From positions 96,001-160,000 of the IMG/VR virus record IMGVR_UViG_3300047311_000323: a stretch of DNA of 64,000 nucleotides; one strand, given 5' to 3'. Shown in pieces: positions 11,176 through 56,830 of this stretch (positions are counted from its first letter, which is position 1; each line of letters starts with the position of its first letter). The stretch comes from a virus. Both the position numbers and the translations under genes were made by a program. The notes beneath the pieces were generated by a model. It ran no database searches. It saw only the letters and a list, made by a program, of their open reading frames with translations, and was not told the DNA's origin.

Positions 11176-11184
11176 TATATATCA
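11176..11184 (-). promoter_or_regulatory. TGATATATA recurrent motif
   Basis: Exact motif copy overlapping the dnaE stop, upstream of the next gene. Confidence 0.45.
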
Positions 11185-18171: not shown

Positions 18172-18180
18172 TATATATCA
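18172..18180 (-). promoter_or_regulatory. TGATATATA recurrent motif
   Basis: Exact copy 30 nt upstream of ATG 18141. Confidence 0.45.
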
Positions 18181-28135: not shown

Positions 28136-28144
28136 TATATATCA
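28136..28144 (-). promoter_or_regulatory. TGATATATA recurrent motif
   Basis: Exact copy 9 nt before ATG 28126. Confidence 0.45.
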
Positions 28145-35104: not shown

Positions 35105-35546
35105 TTTCAGGACGTTTCTTTACCGATTTATCATTGAAAGCCCAGACCGTTGCGCCACATTCGCAACCAACGTATTCTACTACGTTATCGCGGTCCATAG
35201 CTTCTATGCCATGTGATTTATGTAGGGCTGGACTATACGACTTAGCTTCGATGGCAAAGGAAAGGTCCCCCAAATTATGGAAGTATCTGGGCTGAAACTC
35301 CTGGTACCAGTTTGATACCATTCTCTTTACCCACTTTTTAGCAAACTTGGAGTAAATCAAGAAGTGCTTAATCTCTTTCCACTTGAAAGGCTGCATACTA
35401 GCATAGTAGTAATCTGGGCCCTTTCCGCATTCTTTACAGATAGCACGTGGTAAAAAGGTGGATGAGATATTGATTCTCACTACTTCTTGTTTAGAATTCA
35501 TGATTAAAGCCATTGCGCGATTAAGTTCTTTAGTCCTACTGTCCAT
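35055..35546 (-). CDS. hypothetical protein with Cys pairs
   Basis: CKEC and CECG. Confidence 0.6.
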   Translation of the reverse strand: MDSRTKELNRAMALIMNSKQEVVRINISSTFLPRAICKECGKGPDYYYASMQPFKWKEIKHFLIYSKFAKKWVKRMVSNWYQEFQPRYFHNLGDLSFAIEAKSYSPALHKSHGIEAMDRDNVVEYVGCECGATVWAFNDKSVKKRPEITNRKGRYKYPQKFVY

Positions 35547-36906
35547 TAATCAGTTGCCTCGCCCTTTCCACAATCTTCTTACGAATCCTATTAACATAGG
35601 CCATACCACCCATTTGATAGTGGGGAGGTACTCGAAGATGTGTTACAGTAACCGTTGTGCCCGGTCTTACGTCCTGCATATAAATCTTGGAAAATGTATA
35701 CTCTTTAACTTTAGATAGAAGAGAGTTCTTTGTATCTTGCTCAATTACATTAAGCAGCTTCCCAATGTAATATGGTTTGGCGTAAGTTCCCTTCCTACCA
35801 CCAATGTAGAAATCTTCAGTCCCATTTTTAACAACTAGCTTTTCATTCACCATGCCGTCAAAAATTGATATCTCATCAAAAATGCCAAGGTTAGCATCCA
35901 TCAATGTATCTATCTTCACTGGCTTTCTATTCTTGATCACAACAAACGGCAAAGACGCCTCTAACAAGGAAACATACTCTTGAAATACCTTGTGTTGAAA
36001 CCCCATATGACTATCAGTAGTATTTAGCAGATAGGCGACCATCTCCTCTGGGGATCTCTCCAAAAGATTGCCAAAAGCCAAGTAAACACATTGTTTATGT
36101 CTTACTGTCGCATTAGAGCTGCTGTACGCCGCATTGTTGCTTTGGGTTTCGATAATCTCTTTGATCTTCTCTACTTTGTCTTGTAAATCTTCAGCAATCT
36201 CTAGTTGGGTGTGGATATCAACGTCACGTGATTGAATGTTGTCTTTCAACGAAAAACCATCATGTGACGCATCCAGAATCAACTTCTCTGGGTTAGACTT
36301 AGAGGTGGGATGATGCATTTTACTCATCTCACTAACGGAACCAGAAAAGAAACAATCGAAATACGGACAAGAAACCGTATATGAATTATCTATCGGATGC
36401 GGGATGAATCTCTCACAATCCAGACATCGATATCCATTTTTATTATGACGATAGAATGCTCTAAAGAAATACGCACGCTTTGGATCGTTTATGTTGTTCT
36501 TTAGCTCTAGCTCACACTCATCACAATATAGTACTTTGTTGAAAAACAAAACCGAATATTCTTTGCCCAAGAAAACACATCCTGGGCAGATATACTCGGC
36601 TTTATGTTTGAGGTTCGGGGCAGCTAGCTTTTTACAAAAAGCGTTGACTATATAGAAGAGGTAATCATTGATCTCATCAATTGGGGAGCCATTGTTGATG
36701 AACGTAACAGAGCCAGTTCTCAACTCATCTTTCAGCTCTTCGATTAGAGCGCGCAAAGATAGTTGATTACCACTCTTGAAATGAATACGATGTAGGGTGG
36801 CAATTCCTTGTTCGCGTTCTCTTAGGAAATCTTCCACCAGAGAATCAACGTCCATTAAATTGAGCGAGCTTACAACAGCTTCCATTAGACTCCGAAAACT
36901 TGACAC
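35536..36906 (-). CDS. hypothetical multi-zinc-ribbon protein (TAG stop, backup TAA at 35530-35532)
   Basis: 456-aa ORF with CPGC, CDEC, CLDC and CPYFDC. Confidence 0.75.
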   Translation of the reverse strand: MSSFRSLMEAVVSSLNLMDVDSLVEDFLREREQGIATLHRIHFKSGNQLSLRALIEELKDELRTGSVTFINNGSPIDEINDYLFYIVNAFCKKLAAPNLKHKAEYICPGCVFLGKEYSVLFFNKVLYCDECELELKNNINDPKRAYFFRAFYRHNKNGYRCLDCERFIPHPIDNSYTVSCPYFDCFFSGSVSEMSKMHHPTSKSNPEKLILDASHDGFSLKDNIQSRDVDIHTQLEIAEDLQDKVEKIKEIIETQSNNAAYSSSNATVRHKQCVYLAFGNLLERSPEEMVAYLLNTTDSHMGFQHKVFQEYVSLLEASLPFVVIKNRKPVKIDTLMDANLGIFDEISIFDGMVNEKLVVKNGTEDFYIGGRKGTYAKPYYIGKLLNVIEQDTKNSLLSKVKEYTFSKIYMQDVRPGTTVTVTHLRVPPHYQMGGMAYVNRIRKKIVERARQLINGQ

Positions 36907-39731: not shown

Positions 39732-40178
39732 CTATTTGATGATTTGAACCGTCTTTTTCTTAAGGGTTCCTAGCCTAAGATTTCTTTTTGCTTTTCGTTC
39801 CTCTGACAGCTTCTTTTCCAGTTTCTGGTTAAAACTGACGATTGCTTGCCAAGAAAACCCTAATCTGTTGTCTAAATCACCTTCGTGAAGCCCAATGATA
39901 AATCCAGTATTATCAATACTGTAAGAATCAATAGAAATTCGTTGGTACCCCTGATCTTCTAACAAGGATACCAACGACTCCACAACATCACTCCAACAAA
40001 TCCGACCTCCGCTTTTAGGGGAGGATCTTTTAAGAGTAGCTTTGTAACCTGCTTGTGGTAACAAACTATCACAAAGCTTCTTAAAGTCTTCTAATGTAGT
40101 ACCTTCGGGACCACTAAAGAAATAGTGCTCCTGCCAGTCGTAGTCAGAATATACTAGGTCAAAAACGTTGTCGCTCAT
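39732..40178 (-). CDS. hypothetical protein (TAG stop, backup TAA at 39726-39728)
   Basis: ORF overlapping the upstream gene's stop. Confidence 0.65.
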   Translation of the reverse strand: MSDNVFDLVYSDYDWQEHYFFSGPEGTTLEDFKKLCDSLLPQAGYKATLKRSSPKSGGRICWSDVVESLVSLLEDQGYQRISIDSYSIDNTGFIIGLHEGDLDNRLGFSWQAIVSFNQKLEKKLSEERKAKRNLRLGTLKKKTVQIIK

Positions 40179-45234: not shown

Positions 45235-45243
45235 TATATATCA
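45235..45243 (-). promoter_or_regulatory. TGATATATA recurrent motif
   Basis: Exact copy 18 nt before ATG 45216, at the head of a long minus-strand run. Confidence 0.45.
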
Positions 45244-48916: not shown

Positions 48917-49453
48917 TTATGTCTTTTTAGTAGGAGAAACGATCATGCTCATAATCTTACCCTCAAGGGAAACTTGGGGATTTGGAGCTACTTGACCATC
49001 TAACCGCTTGAGAATCCACTCAAGCTTCTCTCTTCCAATATTCGCATGGACAATTTCACGACCACGGAAACGCACAGCAAACTTAACTCGATCACCATCA
49101 GCCAAAAACTCTTTAGCTTGAGCTACTTTGTGATTCAAATCATTTTCATCAGTGTTGGGACGGAAGGTTAGTTCCTTGAGTTCTTGCACTTGCTGACTCT
49201 TTTTGTTAGCTTGTGCTTTCTTCTTTTCCTCATACTTAAACTTACCATAATCCATAATCTTACAGACTGGTGGTAGGGCCTTTGGATTGATCTCTACTAG
49301 ATCAAGACCTTGATCTTGAGCCATCTTTTGGGCTTCAAAAGTATTCATGACACCAGCATTAGTGCCATCGGAAAGGACCACTCGAATCTGTGGGACTCGA
49401 ATGAATTTATTGATACGAACTCGATATTCACGCTGCTGATTATTTGTTTGCAT
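48917..49453 (-). CDS. infC: translation initiation factor IF-3
   Basis: RINKFIRVPQIRVV, GLDLVEI.PKA.PPVCKIMDYGKFKYE.KKK, KELTFRP.TD.ND and RFRGRE; ATG 49453. Confidence 0.95.
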   Translation of the reverse strand: MQTNNQQREYRVRINKFIRVPQIRVVLSDGTNAGVMNTFEAQKMAQDQGLDLVEINPKALPPVCKIMDYGKFKYEEKKKAQANKKSQQVQELKELTFRPNTDENDLNHKVAQAKEFLADGDRVKFAVRFRGREIVHANIGREKLEWILKRLDGQVAPNPQVSLEGKIMSMIVSPTKKT

Positions 49454-49862
49454 TCTCTTTTGTTTTCTCCTGTAATACTTCTTTTGCTGCTTCCAGCAAA
49501 TCTTCCAGTCTGTTATTTGTGTAAAACTCGCCTGGAATCCCACGAGTATTGTAAACTTTGTACCCCATGCCTGTCAAGGTCTCGAAAACTTTTTCATGGG
49601 TTGGGTTAATCATTGTTTTATCCAAGCCAACGCCGATGGCTAAAGCACAAAAATTCCCGTTCTCGTAATTGTAGCTATCTAGAACCATCTCGCCAGGATA
49701 ATCAATTACCCTTTGGATTTGTTCGGCAGTCAATTGTCGTAGACCATTCTTAAGACCAACTTTACGTGGGTCATCAAAATACTCTGAATGCTTAGCCACT
49801 CTATCTTTCTCTGGCTTAGCTAAGTACTCGAATATCTTAGGATCAATTCTACTAGAACTCAT
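49440..49862 (-). CDS. hypothetical protein
   Basis: ORF in operon-like run. Confidence 0.65.
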   Translation of the reverse strand: MSSSRIDPKIFEYLAKPEKDRVAKHSEYFDDPRKVGLKNGLRQLTAEQIQRVIDYPGEMVLDSYNYENGNFCALAIGVGLDKTMINPTHEKVFETLTGMGYKVYNTRGIPGEFYTNNRLEDLLEAAKEVLQEKTKENANK

Positions 49863-50789: not shown

Positions 50790-50798
50790 TATATATCA
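50790..50798 (-). promoter_or_regulatory. TGATATATA recurrent motif
   Basis: Exact copy 6 nt before ATG 50783. Confidence 0.45.
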
Positions 50799-50813: not shown

Positions 50814-50887
50814 TGCGCCGTGTGGGATTTGAACCCACGACCGTTCGTTTTAGAGGCGACCGCTCTGCCAGGCTGAGCTAACGGCGC
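50814..50887 (-). tRNA. amber suppressor tRNA (anticodon CTA) no. 1
   Basis: Perfect 7-bp acceptor GCGCCGT/ACGGCGC, D-arm GCTC..GAGC, anticodon loop CT-CTA-AA, T-arm GTGGG-TTCAAAT-CCCAC; A73; CCA not encoded; anticodon stem has only 3 Watson-Crick pairs. Confidence 0.8.
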
Positions 50888-50897
50888 ATTGAGTGCA

Positions 50898-51047
50898 TTA
50901 CTGCTTATTTGCTGAGTCTACTTGTATTACAGCTTTAGTAGCAGTTTCGCGCCCGTTCTTTTCGCGCCATTCATCAAGAAGGCGCCAGCTCACTCCTAAG
51001 ATTGTACCACCCACCAACGACAATAACATAAATTCAACTAGCCACAT
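50898..51047 (-). CDS. small membrane protein (49 aa)
   Basis: Hand-translated MWLVEFMLLSLVGGTILGVSWRLLDEWREK...; hydrophobic N-terminus; below track cutoff. Confidence 0.5.
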   Translation of the reverse strand: MWLVEFMLLSLVGGTILGVSWRLLDEWREKNGRETATKAVIQVDSANKQ

Positions 51048-51054
51048 GATTACC

Positions 51055-52065
51055 TCAACTTAATGCCATCATCCTATCAATGGATATTCTGGCTTGGTTC
51101 ATTAATTCTTCTGACATATTGATCTGCGGTGTCAGGTCTCTCAAAGAGAGATATACCTTCTCCAAGGTATTCTTCTTCATGAACGGACACTCGTTGCACG
51201 CACAACTTGCTTCAGGCGGTGCAGGAATGAAAATCTTATCTGGAGCGGCCTTCTGCATTTGATGCAAAATACCTGCTTCTGTTGCTACAATGAATTCTTT
51301 GTTTGGACTGCTGACAGCATATTTGAGAATGCCAGTCGTCGATCCAATGAAGTCTGCCATCTTCAAGATAGGTTCTTCACATTCGGGGTGAGCCAAAACT
51401 AGTGCATTAGGATTACGAGTCTTGATACCAATCAGTTTGCGCTCACTGAATGTCTCATGAACGATGCAGGCTCCTTGCCACATGATCATAGGGATGCCAG
51501 TTTTCTTCATGATATAGTTGCCAAGATTTCTATCTGGAGCAAAGAGAATCTCCTTGCCAGACTTGGCAGCTTCACGAACAATCTTTTCTGCATTGGATGA
51601 CGTACAAATGTAATCTGACAATGCTTTGACTTCAGCCGAACAGTTGATGTAACTGACTACCACTGAATTGGGGTGCATGCTCTTCCAAGCGGCGAATTTA
51701 TCAGCAGGGCAACCATCTGCCAGAGAACAACCAGCTTCCAAGTCAGGAAGGACTACAGTTTTCTGAGGGGAGAGGATCTTGGCTGTCTCAGCCATAAAGT
51801 GCACGCCAGCAAAACAGATAACATCAGCATTAGTCTTTGCAGCTTCTTGGGAGAGTTGTAAGGAATCTCCGATGAAGTCAGCAACATCTTGAATTTCAGA
51901 ATCCTGATAGTAGTGGGCCAAGATAACGGCATTGCGTTCTTTTTTGAGGAAAGCAATTCTCTCTTCAATGTCGAAGATCGATAGTCCGTCATACGTGCCA
52001 TCAGCCTGGGCCTTACGTTTCGCTTCTTTGAATTCACTTGCTGAGAAAATAGGTAGTTTATTCAT
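51055..52065 (-). CDS. nadA: quinolinate synthase NadA
   Basis: [50 protein letters not shown] and C.CNECPFMK. Confidence 0.96.
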
Positions 52066-52231
52066 TGTACTTTTCCAAAAAGTGTTGCACAGCCAAACTC
52101 AAATCATCTTCTGATTTGTTGTAGTTTTCGTTGGATACATGTGCGCCATCACTCCAGGCAGCGTAAAGATACCCAGCATCATATGCCTGCTTAATGAGTT
52201 TCTCGAAATCTTCTTTAAAATCTTGTTTCAT
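52058..52231 (-). CDS. small hypothetical protein (57 aa)
   Basis: Hand-translated [23 protein letters not shown]...; overlaps the nadA start. Confidence 0.45.
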
Positions 52232-52305
52232 TGGCTCCCGCAGAGGGGCTCGAACCCCCTTCTTCCGTTTTAGAGACGGCGCTCTACCAGTTGAGCTATG
52301 CGAGA
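52232..52305 (-). tRNA. amber suppressor tRNA (anticodon CTA) no. 2
   Basis: Acceptor TCTCGCA/TGCGGGA, G73, encoded CCA; anticodon arm CCGT-CTCTAAA-ACGG; T-loop TTCGAGC. Confidence 0.88.
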
Positions 52306-52309
52306 ATAG

Positions 52310-52430
52310 GGCCCCAGGGTTGGATTCGCACCACCCTCCGTTCGGTTAAATACCGACTGCTCCTTCATAACCTTACTTTCTTTCCCACCACGTTCGTGGG
52401 CGCTTTCGGGTTTTACTGAGCTACCGGGGC
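52310..52430 (-). ncRNA. tRNA-like RNA with a roughly 45-50 nt structured insertion in the D-loop
   Basis: Acceptor GCCCCGG/CTGGGGC, D-stem GCTC/GAGC around a 55-nt loop, anticodon-like arm GTCGG-TATTTAA-CCGAA, T-like loop TGCGAAT. Confidence 0.6.
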
Positions 52431-52437
52431 ATATCTG

Positions 52438-52761
52438 TTATTCTAAGGTTGAAATAATGTCGGCAGGCCCTTTATATTTTGGATTCCATCGATATTTACC
52501 AACGGCTTCCTTATTATCATTTGGAGATTCGTACTCTAATGCTCCGATAGCAACCAAAGAGTTCAAAAGCGCAAACAATGTATCACCCAATGGATTTGGT
52601 TCTCGTATGGTGCTTTTGGCACCATGCCAAGTATCATGATCAAAAGGTGCGCCATACTCCGGCCAAAACCCCAAAGTTGCTCCTAGTTCATAGGCGGCTG
52701 CATCCCAATAGACCCAGCCAGCTAAGCGTTCTTGAAGTGATGCAATACTAGTCTTTTTCAT
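52438..52761 (-). CDS. hypothetical protein
   Basis: 107-aa ORF. Confidence 0.65.
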   Translation of the reverse strand: MKKTSIASLQERLAGWVYWDAAAYELGATLGFWPEYGAPFDHDTWHGAKSTIREPNPLGDTLFALLNSLVAIGALEYESPNDNKEAVGKYRWNPKYKGPADIISTLE

Positions 52762-52919
52762 AGGTCACACGCACATGATTTGTTACAATTTGCACACTCA
52801 GAAACGAAGCACTCTTCACAGAAGTCTTCCGACTCACAAGTGTGATCTGGGCAGAAAAGCGATGGTGAATCGCAGCATGCTCCAGAACATGGGCACAAAT
52901 CATTATCCTTCTTGCTCAT
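52758..52919 (-). CDS. small Cys-rich, metallothionein-like protein (53 aa, 12 Cys)
   Basis: Hand-translated MSKKDNDLCPCSGACCDSPSLFCPDHTCESEDFCEECFVSECANCNKSCACDL; its TGA overlaps the next ATG. Confidence 0.6.
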   Translation of the reverse strand: MSKKDNDLCPCSGACCDSPSLFCPDHTCESEDFCEECFVSECANCNKSCACDL

Positions 52920-53142
52920 CGTCGTCTTCCTCGGCCCCTCTTTTCATAAGGGCATTCAATTCTTCACGTGGAATATCGGGCCAATTATCAGGTCTTCCAT
53001 CTTTAGGAAGTGGGAAAATAGCTCCAGCCTCTTTATCATGGAAAATGCAAAGCAATCCTGCTTTACCTTCATGAACATAAACGCCAGTGGGCATACCACA
53101 AAAACATTCAGGCCCACGCTCTTTATCAATCCATTGACTCAT
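52903..53142 (-). CDS. hypothetical protein with CFC...CIFH metal-binding pattern
   Basis: 79-aa ORF overlapping both neighbours. Confidence 0.6.
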   Translation of the reverse strand: MSQWIDKERGPECFCGMPTGVYVHEGKAGLLCIFHDKEAGAIFPLPKDGRPDNWPDIPREELNALMKRGAEEDDDEQEG

Positions 53143-53489
53143 TTTCCACCTCTCAAAGCTAGGGGCAATCGGCTACAAAGCTTTTTAGACTTAGGACCGG
53201 GAGCCAAAGCAATCGCCGTAATCTGATTATCAATATCAGGCTCTCTGAATACAGAAAAACTAATATCATGGAACGTAGCCTGTTTCGCTAAGTCCATCAG
53301 TTCCTGCTCATCAGTCACTGACAACAATCCAAGGTAATTGGATTGCTCAAACCACAACTTATCAATCTCCGGATGATCTGCCGTAAACTGACGCAAAGCA
53401 TGCATGCTTTGAACTGCTTGATATCCTGGTTCCAAATCTGCACGAGTAATAACATAAAGCTTGTCGCCTTCTTTAACCTATAGACACAT
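53139..53489 (-). CDS. Pth2-like peptidyl-tRNA hydrolase with in-frame TAG at codon 4 (read-through required)
   Basis: GGAGA SD then ATG TGT CTA TAG GTT AAA GAA GGC GAC AAG...; KLYVITRADL.PG.QA.Q..HA, V.DE.EL and EPD...ITAIALAP...L..LPL Pth2-type motifs. Confidence 0.75.
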
Positions 53490-54069
53490 GATTATCTCCA
53501 AATAGTTTGCGGCAAATTGCTTTACCGCGCTTGTTAATTTGACTCCACTTAATCTTGAATGATTCAGATTCAATGCCGCCAAACATCTTTGCATTGCTAT
53601 GCACCTCAGCTAGCCCGGCCAACAACAATGTCGTTGCCTCTCGGTGCTGACAAAACTCATCTACGTCTACTGCCTTCATGGTATGAATCTTCATATCATG
53701 CAGAATGAGTTTAGCAATAGTCTTATTAGAACTAATCCTCAGCCATGTCTGATAAGACATCCAAGGATGGTTAGGGAAATGTCTACGACCCCGTTCATCA
53801 ACAGTTAGACAGTAGGGCTTGCCGCAATCATGAAAGACTGCGTAACCCGCAATAATATCGTCTGGAAGCAAGGAGGCTAACAACTGCTCTCGATACTCAC
53901 TCATCCAGTCGGGTAATCTCCAACCTTCGCCTATCTGGCCGGTTTTCAAAAATGAAATCAATTCAAAAATGTGCTCTTTAACAGAGACGCCGTGTTGGTA
54001 CACGGATTGGCTATCCGTTTGGGGACAGCTTTGCATATCAGAAATTAAACGATTCTATAGGTAACTCAT
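53473..54069 (-). CDS. HD-domain phosphohydrolase with in-frame TAG at codon 5 (read-through likely)
   Basis: ATG AGT TAC CTA TAG AAT CGT TTA ATT TCT GAT ATG...; H...HDCGKP....HFPNH, like the HD domains of tRNA nucleotidyltransferases; track start 54036 is the downstream alternative. Confidence 0.72.
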
Positions 54070-54076
54070 AGTGCTT

Positions 54077-54085
54077 TATATATCC
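54077..54085 (-). promoter_or_regulatory. GGATATATA recurrent motif
   Basis: Near-exact copy 7 nt before ATG 54069. Confidence 0.45.
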
Positions 54086-54087
54086 AG

Positions 54088-54579
54088 TTATTGATTGATT
54101 ATTTCTTCTAACAAAACTCTAGAATTCATTAACTCTAGTGGTTTGTGCGTATCTAGTTCCCAAGTTACATGGTGACGTGTGCCGCCCATATAACGCTCAA
54201 AATGTAGCATTGTCGTGCCATTACCCTTATCCTTTTTTAGAACAGGGACAACAGTAGCAATCAGCTCACCTTCTGTAACTTTATATCCCACTTTGATATG
54301 TGGCAGTGGTTTGATTTCACAATAACCAAGCACACAATGAGCGCCTTCAATTAGAATAGACCAAGTCTCTAACCACCATGGACTTGGAGGATTAGCATTG
54401 GGCCCAGTGAAGTTCTCAATATGAACTACCTCACCATCCTCAATAGCCTGAATCTCTTGGCCGAAGCCACAATAGATGTCTACGCCTGGGTGGTAGTAGA
54501 AGGAACGTTTGAAAGCAAAATCGCCCACTGCTCCCTCTTCGGGAATAGCGGGCGTTTTATCTCTAAGTGGCCATTTCAT
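54088..54579 (-). CDS. M23 family metallopeptidase (possible cell-wall hydrolase)
   Basis: HPGVDI, AIEDGEV, VKVGYKV..GE.IA.V and MLHFE. Confidence 0.8.
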   Translation of the reverse strand: MKWPLRDKTPAIPEEGAVGDFAFKRSFYYHPGVDIYCGFGQEIQAIEDGEVVHIENFTGPNANPPSPWWLETWSILIEGAHCVLGYCEIKPLPHIKVGYKVTEGELIATVVPVLKKDKGNGTTMLHFERYMGGTRHHVTWELDTHKPLELMNSRVLLEEIINQ

Positions 54580-55099
54580 GTTTTGCTACTGCTTTACAAA
54601 ATTCTATTAGTTGTATGTCAGAAAATGATTGACGAGCCAGGTTTGCCATTACAGATATGAAACGCACATTTCCCTGCATATAACCTTTTGAGTTATCGAT
54701 TCTGTCAATGCTCGCGTTGTACGGACTATACTCTTTCCAGCCATCTGAATCGTACGGAAGGATTAAGTCTAATCCGGTAAATGGACACTTGCCATTTTGT
54801 GATTCCCATAAAACCTTTAGATGTTCAATGGTCAAATCACATCCATAGTTTTTATTGCGATCTCTATACTCGGCACGCAACACGAACCATCTAAATGGTG
54901 TAAACTCATCTCTTCGATTATCAGAGCGAAGATTTTCAGGATTACCTTTTCTAGGATTATCCTCGTTGTTTTTAATCGCTGCACAAGTTCGGGTACAGAA
55001 AAATTCTGTCCTGTTGCGCTTGATTTGTCGATTATATTCTCGAAGGTCTTTGGCAAAAGAATTGCCACAGCTACCACACTTTATTTTAATCGTCTTCAT
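54563..55099 (-). CDS. putative His-Me finger (HNH-like) endonuclease with N-terminal Zn finger (TAG stop, backup TAA at 54557-54559)
   Basis: CGSCG, FCTRTC, CPFTG and ASIDRIDNSKGYMQGNVRFIS. Confidence 0.65.
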   Translation of the reverse strand: MKTIKIKCGSCGNSFAKDLREYNRQIKRNRTEFFCTRTCAAIKNNEDNPRKGNPENLRSDNRRDEFTPFRWFVLRAEYRDRNKNYGCDLTIEHLKVLWESQNGKCPFTGLDLILPYDSDGWKEYSPYNASIDRIDNSKGYMQGNVRFISVMANLARQSFSDIQLIEFCKAVAKHEMAT

Positions 55100-55142
55100 A
55101 CAATCACATATAACACGTAGTGTGGAGGTGTTCGGTAATTAT

Positions 55143-55494
55143 TGGTGGAGATGCAGGGTACTGCCCCCTGGTCCGCGATATGCCCTTATCAAAACTCATT
55201 CACAAACTTAGTTGATATTAGCGTCATCAACAACGCTGCAAGAATTTGCTCCGGCTGGCTATCTACTGTTAATCTTGTTGTTGAACATCGTAGCCCTGTT
55301 CATCAACCAGCTTTGTGGGTTGGCGTTCCTTTGATTACTCAAGCAGTCTTATCTGGGAACGAATGGTGCCGTTAGGCGGCCATTGCAAATGCATTATCGT
55401 TTGCATTTATACGTCAATTGCTTTTAGAGGGGCAATCATCCTCTGTTTGCGTCATTCTGATAACTCGTTACCACGTCGAATCTATGTCATCCCC
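55143..55494 (-). ncRNA. ssrA: tmRNA, one-piece; tag peptide (A)ANDNAFAMAA
   Basis: 5' GGGGATGAC...GATTCGAC; 3' CAGGG-GGCAGTA-CCCTG-CATCTCC-A-CCA with G3-U70; tag ORF 55372-55404 GCA AAC GAT AAT GCA TTT GCA ATG GCC GCC TAA. Confidence 0.95.
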
Positions 55495-55501
55495 ATAAAT
55501 G

Positions 55502-55524
55502 AAAAATCCCACGAGGTGTGGGAT
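55502..55524 (-). terminator. hairpin plus T-tract between the tRNA-Thr cluster and tmRNA
   Basis: ATCCCAC/GTGGGAT 7-bp stem followed by TTTT on the minus strand. Confidence 0.5.
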
Positions 55525-55597
55525 GGAGCTAATGATGAGAATCGAACTCATGTAGCTGCGTTACGAGTGCAGCGTAATACCACTATACTACATTAGC
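55524..55597 (-). tRNA. tRNA-Thr(CGT)
   Basis: GCTAATG...CATTAGC-T-CCA; loop CTCGTAA. Confidence 0.9.
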
Positions 55598-55600
55598 GTG

Positions 55601-55675
55601 TGGAGCTGATTGTGGGAATTGAACCCTCATTTCCGCGTTACTAGGGCGGAGTAATAGCCGTTATACTAAATCAGC
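55601..55675 (-). tRNA. tRNA-Thr(AGT)
   Basis: GCTGATT...AATCAGC-T-CCA; loop CTAGTAA. Confidence 0.88.
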
Positions 55676-55678
55676 TTA

Positions 55679-55753
55679 TGGAGCCCAAGTCGAGAGTCGA
55701 ACTCGATTTTCGTCTTTACCAAAGACGGGTAATAACCGTTATACTACGTGGGC
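55679..55753 (-). tRNA. tRNA-Thr(GGT)
   Basis: GCCCACG...CTTGGGC-T-CCA; arm CGTCT-TTGGTAA-AGACG. Confidence 0.9.
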
Positions 55754-55762
55754 TTATCGGTT

Positions 55763-55836
55763 TGGAGCTGATGCCGAGAATCGAACTCGGTTCTCCTCGT
55801 TACAAGGGAGGAATAATACCATTATACTAAATCAGC
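55763..55836 (-). tRNA. tRNA-Thr(TGT)
   Basis: GCTGATT...CATCAGC-T-CCA; loop CTTGTAA. Confidence 0.9.
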
Positions 55837-56041: not shown

Positions 56042-56830
56042 TCACCGACCAAAGCTTTCTTGTCTAAAGATATCTGCACCATTCTTAAAGATGTTAGATA
56101 GGAAGGATTGATCTTTGGTAAAGATTGGTGGCTCCAAATTGAGATGCCACTTGTTCCTCATTGATTCTCCTGAGACAATAGGAACTTTGTAGGCAGCAGC
56201 CCCTCTCCTGAAAGAAACTGGATAGTCGTTGAAGTTGATATCCACTTCCTGATGGAGCAAATCAACCTTCTCATCCACACTCAACCCAGCCATCATCTCT
56301 TTGATATTGTTCTTATCGTATTTCTTGATAAGTTCATACAAGCAAGCAGACTGAATTGAAGTATGGAAGTTCTGCTGTTGTTTGTAAATAATGGTATTGA
56401 CCGCCTCACCAAGAGTTGGCACAGCGAATACTTGAGAGGTAAAGATTGGGGCGCCAGTTACATTAAGACCAATTTTATCTGCGACTTCATTGAAATGCAT
56501 GGTGGCAGTAGCCGAAGTAACTGAGCAAATCTTTTGCAGTTTGTTGTCATACCAAGGACTGGTATCATTGTTCTGGTCGTTACGAGCCACAATAACAATC
56601 TCGTCATTGTGCTGGTAGGCAAAGAGGGAGCCCTCTACCTCTTGGCAAAGTTTTAGAGTTGTGGAAAGAATGCACTCGGCAAATTTTGGACAATAGGGCT
56701 TGTCAAGCAACTGGGTAATTTTAGAGAAACCTCGCCCGTTGACGCAGATAATGATTGGTACTCGGTCGAGTAACCTGTAGTCGGTGACCGATTGGTATCG
56801 TTCAACGCGGTCTTTCAATTTGTTTGACAT
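56042..56830 (-). CDS. tRNA-His guanylyltransferase (Thg1/TLP) family protein with degenerate first metal-binding Asp
   Basis: RVPIIICVNGRGFSK.T..L.KPY, AYQHNDEI, W..NKLQKI.SV.SA and RRG. Confidence 0.82.
   Translation of the reverse strand: MSNKLKDRVERYQSVTDYRLLDRVPIIICVNGRGFSKITQLLDKPYCPKFAECILSTTLKLCQEVEGSLFAYQHNDEIVIVARNDQNNDTSPWYDNKLQKICSVTSATATMHFNEVADKIGLNVTGAPIFTSQVFAVPTLGEAVNTIIYKQQQNFHTSIQSACLYELIKKYDKNNIKEMMAGLSVDEKVDLLHQEVDINFNDYPVSFRRGAAAYKVPIVSGESMRNKWHLNLEPPIFTKDQSFLSNIFKNGADIFRQESFGR

Follow-up and report, generated by a model that had tools for sequence, protein, structure and literature searches.

Early in-frame amber codons in two adjacent genes of a large soil phage suggest a tRNA-operated translational lock

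The gene for release factor 2 (RF2), prfB, is autoregulated by an in-frame UGA near its 5′ end and infC (IF3) by its AUU start. The bar minigenes of phage lambda (AUG AUA stop) cause peptidyl-tRNA drop-off and are toxic when Pth is limiting. On the scale of whole genomes, TAG is read as Gln ('code 15') in TAG-recoded Lak, crAss-like and Agate phages (10.1101/2021.08.26.457843; PMC9523058), and in the fully TAG-recoded Lak and Agate phages a suppressor tRNA is known to be paired with RF2 (10.1101/2021.08.26.457843). For phage XacN1, reading through 18 amber stops revealed nothing and the target of its suppressors was not identified (PMC5852040), and the paper on phage RsoM2USA merely mentions a suppressor tRNA (PMC8504454). 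Here we describe a stretch of 64,000 nucleotides (the window), bases 96001–160000 of the 198,396-bp virus contig IMGVR_UViG_3300047311_000323 (G000; G+C 42.7%; CheckV completeness 45%). It contains two adjacent genes, one for an HD-domain protein and one for a protein with the Pth2 fold, each interrupted by a single in-frame TAG in its first codons, and two genes for tRNAs with a CUA anticodon, tRNA(CUA). The arrangement looks like a natural tRNA-operated translational lock that is common to dozens of distant large phages.

Nearly all genes of the window, including every gene of this module, lie on the minus strand. The elements of the putative lock are, in window coordinates:

53473–54069, minus strand: HD-domain gene, 198 codons plus stop, with an in-frame TAG as codon 5 (phrog_14850, 6.5e-61; AF2 model)
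54055–54057, minus strand: in-frame UAG of the HD gene (codon 5), followed by A; same alignment column in loci L001–L015
53139–53489, minus strand: Pth2-fold gene, 116 codons plus stop, with an in-frame TAG as codon 4 (Pfam PTH2; phrog_1866; AF2; Foldseek)
53478–53480, minus strand: in-frame UAG of the Pth2-like gene (codon 4), followed by G; conserved in L001–L013 and in most distant homologues
53496–53499, minus strand: Shine-Dalgarno (SD) sequence GGAG, 6 nt before the leader ATG of the Pth2-like gene; the GAG/GGAG geometry recurs in homologues
54077–54084, minus strand: promoter-like motif GATATATA, 7 nt before the ATG of the HD gene; conserved upstream of HD in L001–L005 and L007
50813–50887, minus strand: tRNA(CUA) no. 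1, amber suppressor type 1 (ARAGORN; Rfam tRNA, 59.7 bits)
52232–52305, minus strand: tRNA(CUA) no. 2, amber suppressor type 2 (ARAGORN; Rfam, 49.2 bits)

The HD gene begins with ATG (54069–54067) AGT TAC CTA TAG AAT and ends with TAA at 53475–53473; the Pth2-like gene begins with ATG (53489–53487) TGT CTA TAG GTT, ends with TGA at 53141–53139 and starts inside the end of the HD gene, with an overlap of 17 nt. The coordinates given in the original prediction for the two CUA tRNAs, the early CTA-TAG of both genes and a transfer-messenger RNA (tmRNA) were correct. The identical CTA before each TAG, to which it had also drawn attention, is not conserved, and relatives have TTA, CCC, TGG, ACC or TCG instead. 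From its TAG to TTG 53435 the Pth2-like gene contains no ATG, GTG or TTG, and a start at this TTG (residue 19) would delete the core strand β1 (residues 10–16 in the AF2 model). It is certain that a whole Pth2-like protein requires read-through of UAG. The same is likely for the whole HD protein: residues L8, I9 and M12 just past the TAG are conserved even where their codons have changed synonymously, and residues 3–14 form helix 1 of the AF2 model, across the TAG position. Frameshifting was considered and is unneeded, since the frame of each ATG is the frame of the downstream sequence.

The genome has ten copies of the GATATATA motif on the coding strand and two on the other strand, and seven of the ten coding-strand copies are followed by an ATG 2–10 nt later. 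It looks like a phage promoter that would give leaderless or nearly leaderless mRNAs. Its position 7 nt before the ATG of the HD gene implies that the leader of the HD mRNA is very short or absent. The minus-strand sites in the window are 54077–54084, 50790–50797, 28136–28143, 45235–45242, 18172–18179 and 11176–11183, and more are found elsewhere in the genome.

The TAG codons were also present in independent assemblies: four public runs, each from a different study of soil or rhizosphere, gave contigs (X1–X4) that covered the TAG of the Pth2-like gene, and three of these contigs (X2–X4) covered that of the HD gene, with no difference at either TAG. In one variant the HD leader codon TAC was changed to the synonymous TAT and the TAG was unchanged; a variant strain that had accumulated 17 differences over 178 nt still kept the TAG. 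Assembly error, which the original prediction had named as a possible refutation, is thus contradicted by four assemblies for the Pth2-like gene and three for the HD gene.

For a wider comparison IMG/VR was searched in two rounds, with the HD protein as query and afterwards with a profile, which yielded 81 loci, down to 37% identity and mostly on contigs of 100–570 kb. The Pth2-like gene adjoins the HD gene or is fused to it in 75 of these loci. Clustering at 90% identity gave 66 HD clusters, 58 of them with a Pth2-like gene, which are not phylogenetically independent contrasts. A stop 1–10 codons past the ATG was found at the N-terminus of the HD-containing open reading frame (ORF) in 53 of the 66 clusters (44 with TAG, seven with a TAG heading a Pth2-HD fusion and two with TGA) and in the Pth2-like gene in 50 of the 58, so that conservation of the early stop among homologues, a check proposed in the original prediction, was confirmed. 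When HD proteins were clustered at 70% identity, 31 of 42 clusters had the early stop. Three of the 13 exceptional HD clusters have a single internal TAG instead. The gene bodies, 67 unique ones for HD and 59 for Pth2, contain only five internal TAGs altogether. As a rule a gene carries a single stop, which falls almost always within its first 5%. Early stops are kept from 91% to 37% identity and occur in phages whose hosts belong to different bacterial phyla.

Leader peptides differ among homologues in both length and sequence (M-S-Y-L, M-P, M-L, M-K-K-T, M-C-L, M-S and others), and the residues directly past the stop are conserved at the protein level with synonymous codon changes. An SD sequence (GAG or GGAG) is located 6–8 nt before the leader ATG across homologues. 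In 101 unique contexts the stop is followed by A 71 times, by G 24 times, by C 6 times and never by T. A purine in this position helps the suppression of UAG in E. coli; the bias partly reflects the conserved Ile, Val or Asn that comes next in the protein. Fusions occur in both orders, Pth2-HD in L076, L084, L091–L095, L112 and L121 and HD-Pth2 in L109, L113, L115, L118 and XacN1 (L138 in the locus list), which argues that the two enzymes work together. Each fusion is headed by a single early TAG.

A tblastn search with the HD family gave 29 records of cultured or named jumbo phages. RsoM2USA has M-K-S-TAG in its HD gene and M-L-TAG in its Pth2-like gene. ORF364 of XacN1 is an HD-Pth2 fusion preceded by an SD sequence and ATG AAG TAG, and its annotated start lies downstream of this TAG. 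In GAP32 the Pth2-like gene has M-A-Q-TAG and the HD gene an internal TAG near codon 47, a Sup-tRNA is annotated 2.3 kb away, and the annotation splits the gene (GAP32_398 to GAP32_399). The Pth2-like gene of ME3 has M-T-TAG, and a tRNA(CUA) is located 0.8 kb upstream of the HD start. XacN1 and RsoM2USA carry the same module as the window phage, an uncultured phage from soil that is only distantly related to them. It has two suppressors and a tmRNA, and its complete relatives have RF2. The N-terminal position of the stop explains why the XacN1 authors found no target. In the full-text literature we found no description of an N-terminal stop in these genes, although absence there is not proof. 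When the locus was compared with phage records by megablast, the sole match was a tRNA-Thr of Enterococcus phages; the window phage therefore has no close cultured relative.

Both tRNA(CUA) have the 7-nt anticodon loop CUCUAAA with U33 and A37. The first has an A73 discriminator, no encoded CCA and a C31.A39 mismatch, and in its orthologues in L001–L003 the stem is kept via compensatory changes. The second has U1-A72, G73 and an encoded CCA, and a 98% identical copy is present in L001. Suppressor families differ among relatives, with the loop always YUCUAAA. No one-step parent of either tRNA was found among the 52 tRNAs of G001, a complete 480-kb relative (91% identity in the HD protein), and the tRNA-Gln genes of the phage itself differ from tRNA(CUA) in the D arm.

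The type of the stop changes with the anticodon. In L124 both genes have TGA, and two tRNA(UCA) genes lie 2.9 kb away. In L103 and L108 the HD gene has TGA; the 40 and 15 tRNAs recovered from their records include two and one tRNA(UCA), respectively, and no tRNA(CUA). Outside these three loci the leader stop is TAG, though TAA is the commonest stop in these genomes. Comparison of the loci shows that the stop type covaries with the anticodon of the phage's own suppressor across lineages, so that in sequence the lock matches the key, which answers the co-occurrence check proposed in the original prediction. A tRNA(CUA) is present inside the 12-kb locus in 35 of the 66 clusters. Seven loci (L016, L114, L126, L127, L018, L110 and L111) have a tRNA(CUA) within 4 kb of HD even without an N-terminal stop in HD. 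Default ARAGORN misses tRNA(CUA) of odd shape: relaxing its settings added 13 tRNA(CUA) and at most seven tRNAs of any other anticodon. A search of five records without a local suppressor for a strict tRNA(CUA) pattern gave one real candidate, in the L096 record, this pattern being too strict to establish absence.

Two further observations on tRNAs were made. Reading of UAG by an initiator tRNA was ruled out, as neither a C1xA72 mismatch nor three G-C pairs in the anticodon stem were present, and it is also contradicted by the conserved in-frame ATG with SD sequence. In G001, ARAGORN called a candidate tRNA with anticodon UUA (ochre type) at L031:2154–2230.

The original prediction had held that the genome as a whole is not recoded and that its genes avoid TAG stops, and both statements were substantiated. 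Simple code-11 ORFs, from crude ORF calling made for this analysis, cover 93.6% of G000. Its stops are TAA (142), TGA (80) and TAG (11); only 3 of 154 genes of at least 150 aa, and 4 of 169 genes of at least 100 aa on the main coding strand, end in TAG. A TAA exactly one codon past the TAG (TAG-NNN-TAA) follows in three of these four coding-strand genes (window minus strand, 35536–36906, 39732–40178 and 54563–55099) compared with 8 of the 165 TAA- or TGA-ended genes. The claim that TAG stops are backed up holds here and is not general, this back-up not being seen in the close relative G001. No TAG on the coding strand of G000 divides two segments with coding statistics, and 19 TAA or TGA codons divide ordinary adjacent genes there. 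In the first 400 kb of G001, 6 of 345 plus-strand genes of at least 100 aa end in TAG, none of them at 200–400 kb.

A recurrent ATG-(1–5 codons)-TAG was limited to the HD and Pth2-like families among 606 called genes from this genome and 18 related loci. HD is the only called gene of G001 with a conserved N-terminal TAG; its Pth2-like gene also has one and falls below the size cut-off of the gene calls. No other gene with a conserved in-frame TAG was found in G000 (198 kb) or in the complete G001 (480 kb). Genome-wide, TAG is not enriched overall where an ATG lies within six codons before a stop (9.5% vs 7–8%), and the early-TAG effect is therefore gene-specific. Three N-terminal TAG candidates in G000 (108675–108968, 180181–180612 and 152846–153472) and eight candidate genes in G001 were rejected, none being conserved with a coding extension. 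Long post-TAG 'extensions' in a region of G001 with higher G+C (428–460 kb) proved to be ordinary adjacent genes that share a frame. An all-against-all search for X (TAG) in alignments was dominated by out-of-frame matches of closely related DNA. Judged by these sequences, genome-wide recoding is excluded and conserved in-frame TAGs are limited to two adjacent genes.

The likeness to the code-15 phages extends to the phage tRNA(CUA), here with two genes, to TAG-depleted stops, to RF2 (here in the complete relatives), to a host presumed to use the standard code and to a proposed control, by suppressor expression, over which genes are translatable. In code-15 phages, however, hundreds of in-frame TAGs are spread over many genes, among them those for structural proteins and lysis, and under code 11 the coding density collapses, being higher with TAG as a sense codon. 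None of this applies to G000, where coding density is 93–94% under code 11, only two adjacent genes have a TAG, one each at codon 3–6, and the gated genes are related to translation and not to lysis.

In G000, which is 45% complete, neither a release factor nor GlnRS was found. All three complete relatives (G001, G010 and G011) have an uninterrupted RF2 with SPF and GGQ motifs, which scored 383–417 bits against TIGR00020 (prfB; cut-off 370):

L176:832–1926 (G001): RF2 gene, full-length, without the usual programmed frameshift
L177:1414–2562, minus strand (G011): RF2 gene, full-length, without the usual programmed frameshift
L178:835–1914 (G010): RF2 gene, full-length, without the usual programmed frameshift

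RF2 recognises UAA and UGA, not UAG. Its presence in the relatives suggests a UAG-overriding state that may involve loss of release factor 1 (RF1) function, and it lends indirect support to the originally proposed role of limiting or inhibited RF1. Among the RF2 matches listed for phage records (30 of 83) were Lak phages and short or host-like records, and no cultured carrier of the module. SmpB was not found in G000 or G001. In G013, the complete TGA-type phage of L124, a 184-aa RF1-like protein (L179:1330–1884) with PPT and GGQ motifs and no N-terminal domain is the only release-factor homologue; this single case may be the mirror image of RF2 in TAG-type phages. The RF2 gene of G001 lies in the last 80 kb, classed as 'provirus', amid ORFs without an NCBIfam match. 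This region (400–480 kb, L069–L072) has a G+C content of 48–50% compared with 41–44% elsewhere, many TGA stops and normal TAG stops, and could be phage DNA, host DNA or a chimeric assembly.

The Pth2-like protein matched Pfam PTH2 (PF01981) with 7.7e-7 and 29.8 bits (cut-off 23), residues 10–102 aligning with positions 2–104 of the 115-position profile, and archaeal Pth2 by profile with 4.6e-8. Its AF2 model (pLDDT 92.9; strand 1, residues 10–16) matched archaeal and human Pth2 structures in Foldseek (2ZV3, 1Q7S, 3ERJ, 1WN2 and 1XTY; E 3e-7, TM 0.71–0.75). Residues H30, E83, P84 and D85 are invariant in the phage family. The HD protein has the H...HD...D metal-binding motif of the HD phosphohydrolase superfamily; among 14 homologues, down to 38% identity, H80, D81, H97, H101, D125, H129 and H157 are invariant and H26 nearly so. 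Its only matching curated family is phrog_14850, of unknown function, and no Pfam family matched at E ≤ 0.1 except for a spurious zinc-ribbon match. The best PDB matches of the HD protein (AF2 model, pLDDT 93.1) were to the HD region of class II tRNA nucleotidyltransferase (3WFO–3WFS). These matches were weak (hmmsearch E 0.04; Foldseek E 4.7e-3, TMq 0.5–0.6, the top eleven matches), with an F-H-D-x-G-K-P motif that aligns between the two. Unlike that enzyme, the phage protein is a stand-alone protein of 198 aa with no nucleotidyltransferase head. In E. coli the CCA-adding enzyme possesses an HD domain with 2′,3′-cyclic phosphodiesterase and phosphatase activity.

A predicted complex of the HD and Pth2-like proteins scored 0.55 compared with 0.00 for the best control, with the runs sharing at least 10% of contacts and a partner pLDDT of at least 85. 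Of 80 solved complexes 58 attained the mark used for this score, as did 2 of 110 mismatched pairs, but only seven of the 80 solved complexes and both passing mismatches had a score of 0.60 or less; the prediction lends weak support. The two proteins probably form a two-enzyme unit acting on tRNA 3′ ends. The originally proposed role as rescue enzymes agrees with the Pth2 fold; it agrees less well with the replaced catalytic residues described below and with the weak resemblance of the HD protein to the HD region of the class II CCA-adding enzyme.

We consider it likely that both enzymes are made only by suppressor-tRNA read-through, in a selected lock-and-key arrangement and not as part of genome recoding. 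A ribosome would start at the SD-led ATG of the Pth2-like gene or at the promoter-proximal ATG of the HD gene, translate three or four codons and meet UAG. Here the phage tRNA(CUA) would compete with host RF1, and only suppression would allow translation to continue in frame. The output of full-length HD and Pth2-like protein would then be proportional to suppressor activity, i.e. to processed, CCA-bearing, aminoacylated tRNA, and termination at UAG would cost only a tri- or tetrapeptide. The enzyme pair probably acts on tRNA 3′ ends, the Pth2 fold by ester hydrolysis and the HD domain by phosphoester hydrolysis. As its purpose we favour a feed-forward effect, by which tRNA-end or ribosome-rescue capacity would be coupled to the UAG-suppressing state of the phage. 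That suppression occurs, that it has a regulatory role and what the enzymes do we infer from sequences and predicted structures.

Several findings weigh against read-through as the switch for both genes. No matching suppressor was found in the 12-kb locus of 29 of the 66 clusters. A missing suppressor is uninformative, however, because many records are fragments; in XacN1, the suppressors sit in the terminal repeats (PMC5852040). L078 (G004, 97% complete) is an unexplained exception: besides the N-terminal TAG its HD gene contains another at codon +34, and a tRNA(UCA) is the only suppressor among the 27 tRNAs of the locus, no tRNA(CUA) having been found. The HD gene of L016, L088, L114, L117 and L018 has no N-terminal stop, and the Pth2-like gene of L014 has no early stop. 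An invariant Met seven codons past the TAG of HD may permit some HD protein to be made by re-initiation, so that the gate may be leaky. The suppressor genes lie downstream of the gated genes in the same orientation and may be co-transcribed with them; a gate that is conditional in time, as originally proposed, was not borne out, and a temporal switch is not evident. The amino acid inserted at UAG could not be derived from tRNA comparison, and no RNA runs containing the locus are listed among public runs. Finally, the catalytic residues of archaeal Pth2 are the Lys of a G-K motif and the Asp of a D-A-G motif. The phage protein shares the fold of archaeal and eukaryotic Pth2 (PF01981; 2ZV3, 1WN2, 1XTY, 1Q7S), but both residues are replaced: in the alignment to 2ZV3, G-Y (Ala or Ser in some relatives) stands opposite G-K and E-P-D opposite D-A-G. 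Its substrate and chemistry may differ from those of Pth2.

A feedback would fit the self-contained module as well as the feed-forward effect, and sequence cannot separate them. It is conceivable, if doubtful, that suppressor tRNA and the two gated genes form a self-referential, portable translation-state sensor, joined in this clade by RF2 and tmRNA, in which the module autoregulates by UAG/UGA read-through. An autoregulatory homeostat, which we hold to be rather unlikely, would have the enzymes act on the suppressor tRNA, on aminoacyl- or short leader peptidyl-tRNA or on tRNA 3′ ends generally; their synthesis needs charged tRNA(CUA) at codon 4–5 and would so report and limit or reinforce its activity. 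The module is indeed self-contained, with the two adjacent enzyme genes as the suppressor's only conserved clients, tRNA(CUA) stays near HD in the seven loci without an N-terminal stop, and both folds point to the tRNA 3′ end. Such a loop would resemble the self-control of RF2 and IF3 via the step that each catalyses, with an early signal, in the gene of a translation-associated factor, that the translation apparatus decodes according to its own state. In prfB, however, a +1 frameshift is used and the product itself is sensed directly, whereas in the window genes the frame is unchanged, a dedicated tRNA is used and the link between enzyme and UAG decoding is only hypothetical. The stop after 2–4 codons also recalls the lambda bar minigenes, in both cases an SD-led ORF of 2–4 sense codons plus stop, a type of ORF that releases very short peptidyl-tRNAs, which are Pth substrates. 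The bar minigenes are free-standing and sequester tRNA, whereas the 'minigene' of the window is in frame and continuous with a Pth2-fold gene, and its stop would be read by the phage's own tRNA. Against the homeostat, there is no known substrate for either enzyme, and the sequences do not tell whether a loop would be positive or negative; it draws on the same sequence evidence as the feed-forward lock and is a refinement of it, not an exclusive rival.

It is very unlikely that the leaders are separate mini-ORFs, the proteins being made by re-initiation or from their own starts (ATG 54036 for HD; TTG 53435 or a near-cognate codon for the Pth2-like gene) with the tRNAs irrelevant. The invariant Met of HD could serve as such a start, in more than half of the contexts the codon after the stop is a near-cognate start (ATT, ATC, ATA or GTT), and the Pth2-like gene of L014 has ATG exactly where its relatives have TAG. 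Yet AAC, AAT, CTT or AAA follows the stop in many loci, a start at the TTG would remove the core strand of the Pth2-like protein, and the invariant Met is kept inside Pth2-HD fusions, where a start is impossible. Moreover, any stop and any frame would do for a mini-ORF, but the stop is always in frame, is TAG though TAA is commonest, and is TGA only with tRNA(UCA). This last covariation also speaks against neutral tolerance at an early step of code-15 recoding, in which TAGs, harmless in the presence of suppressors and RF2, arose by chance in two genes. Such tolerance would fit the model of Borges et al., by which stop-codon depletion is followed by acquisition of a suppressor and the emergence of in-frame stops (10.1101/2021.08.26.457843), as well as the depletion of TAG as a stop and the RF2 of the relatives. 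Drift would scatter TAGs, but they occur in two families, about one per gene and in the first few codons, are kept from 91% to 37% identity in phages with hosts of different bacterial phyla and switch to TGA together with the tRNA anticodon; we regard chance as a highly improbable origin. Sequencing or assembly error, or decay into two pseudogenes, can be virtually discounted. Annotators have split or shortened these genes in cultured phages (GAP32, XacN1), but independent assemblies and more than 60 sequence clusters keep the TAGs, and the downstream frames are intact, conserved at the protein level and predicted to fold with confidence.

The neighbourhood of the lock holds further RNA genes:

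55524–55836, minus strand: array of four tRNA-Thr genes (CGU, AGU, GGU, UGU) upstream of the tmRNA, in conserved synteny (ARAGORN)
55143–55494, minus strand: tmRNA with tag ANDNAFAMAA (Rfam RF00023, 100.6 bits, gathering score 47, model positions 1–374, full length)

The minus-strand order starts with the four tRNA-Thr genes and continues with the tmRNA, a 178-aa gene without a match in Pfam, an M23-peptidase gene, the HD gene and the Pth2-like gene. Three small genes, a tRNA-like stretch, tRNA(CUA) no. 2, a small ORF, nadA, another small ORF and tRNA(CUA) no. 1 follow, and beyond these an IF3 homologue and a tRNA-Arg(CCU). ARAGORN overlooks the window tmRNA despite its Rfam score and calls the same tag, ANDNAFAMAA, for the L001 orthologue; by this program a tmRNA stands beside the module in at least 14 of the 81 loci, which is a lower bound. 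The NadA (quinolinate synthase) gene (51055–52065, minus strand; Pfam 7e-122) lies between both suppressor tRNAs. It looks recently inserted, because a gap of only some 10 nt separates the two tRNAs in the relatives L002 and L003. The module is flanked by a complete IF3 homologue (IF3_N and IF3_C; 48917–49543, minus strand) on one side and by a gene for a Thg1-like tRNA-His guanylyltransferase (56042–56830, minus strand) on the other. Immediately upstream of tRNA(CUA) no. 2, a 125-nt stretch (52306–52432, minus strand) has a tRNA-like fold with acceptor, anticodon-like and T arms and about 50 nt inserted in the D arm. Rfam gave no family for 52280–52460, and the fold energy is unexceptional (z −0.99); the stretch may represent a tRNA that has decayed or one that carries an intron, among other possibilities.

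If the lock operates as proposed, public annotations of these genes, now truncated or split, would be corrected, and synthetic biology would have compact pairs of suppressor and gate of natural origin, for UAG as well as for UGA. Carriers of the same design are culturable, as phages of Ralstonia, Xanthomonas, Cronobacter and Acinetobacter. Were the doubtful sensor also to be true, the substrates of the enzymes would be the suppressor tRNA or short peptidyl-tRNAs set free at their own leaders, the phage would set the extent to which it overrides the stop codon of its host, and the module would be a natural, gene-specific 'orthogonal translation' circuit. This would account for the suppressor tRNAs that many jumbo phages with the standard code retain although no other client is visible. 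For the lock itself, the suppressor tRNAs of jumbo phages under the standard code would gain a target, an early stop in two conserved, linked genes. Reassignment of a stop codon need not be genome-wide: suppressors, RF2 and depleted TAG stops may be used as a lock on two genes.

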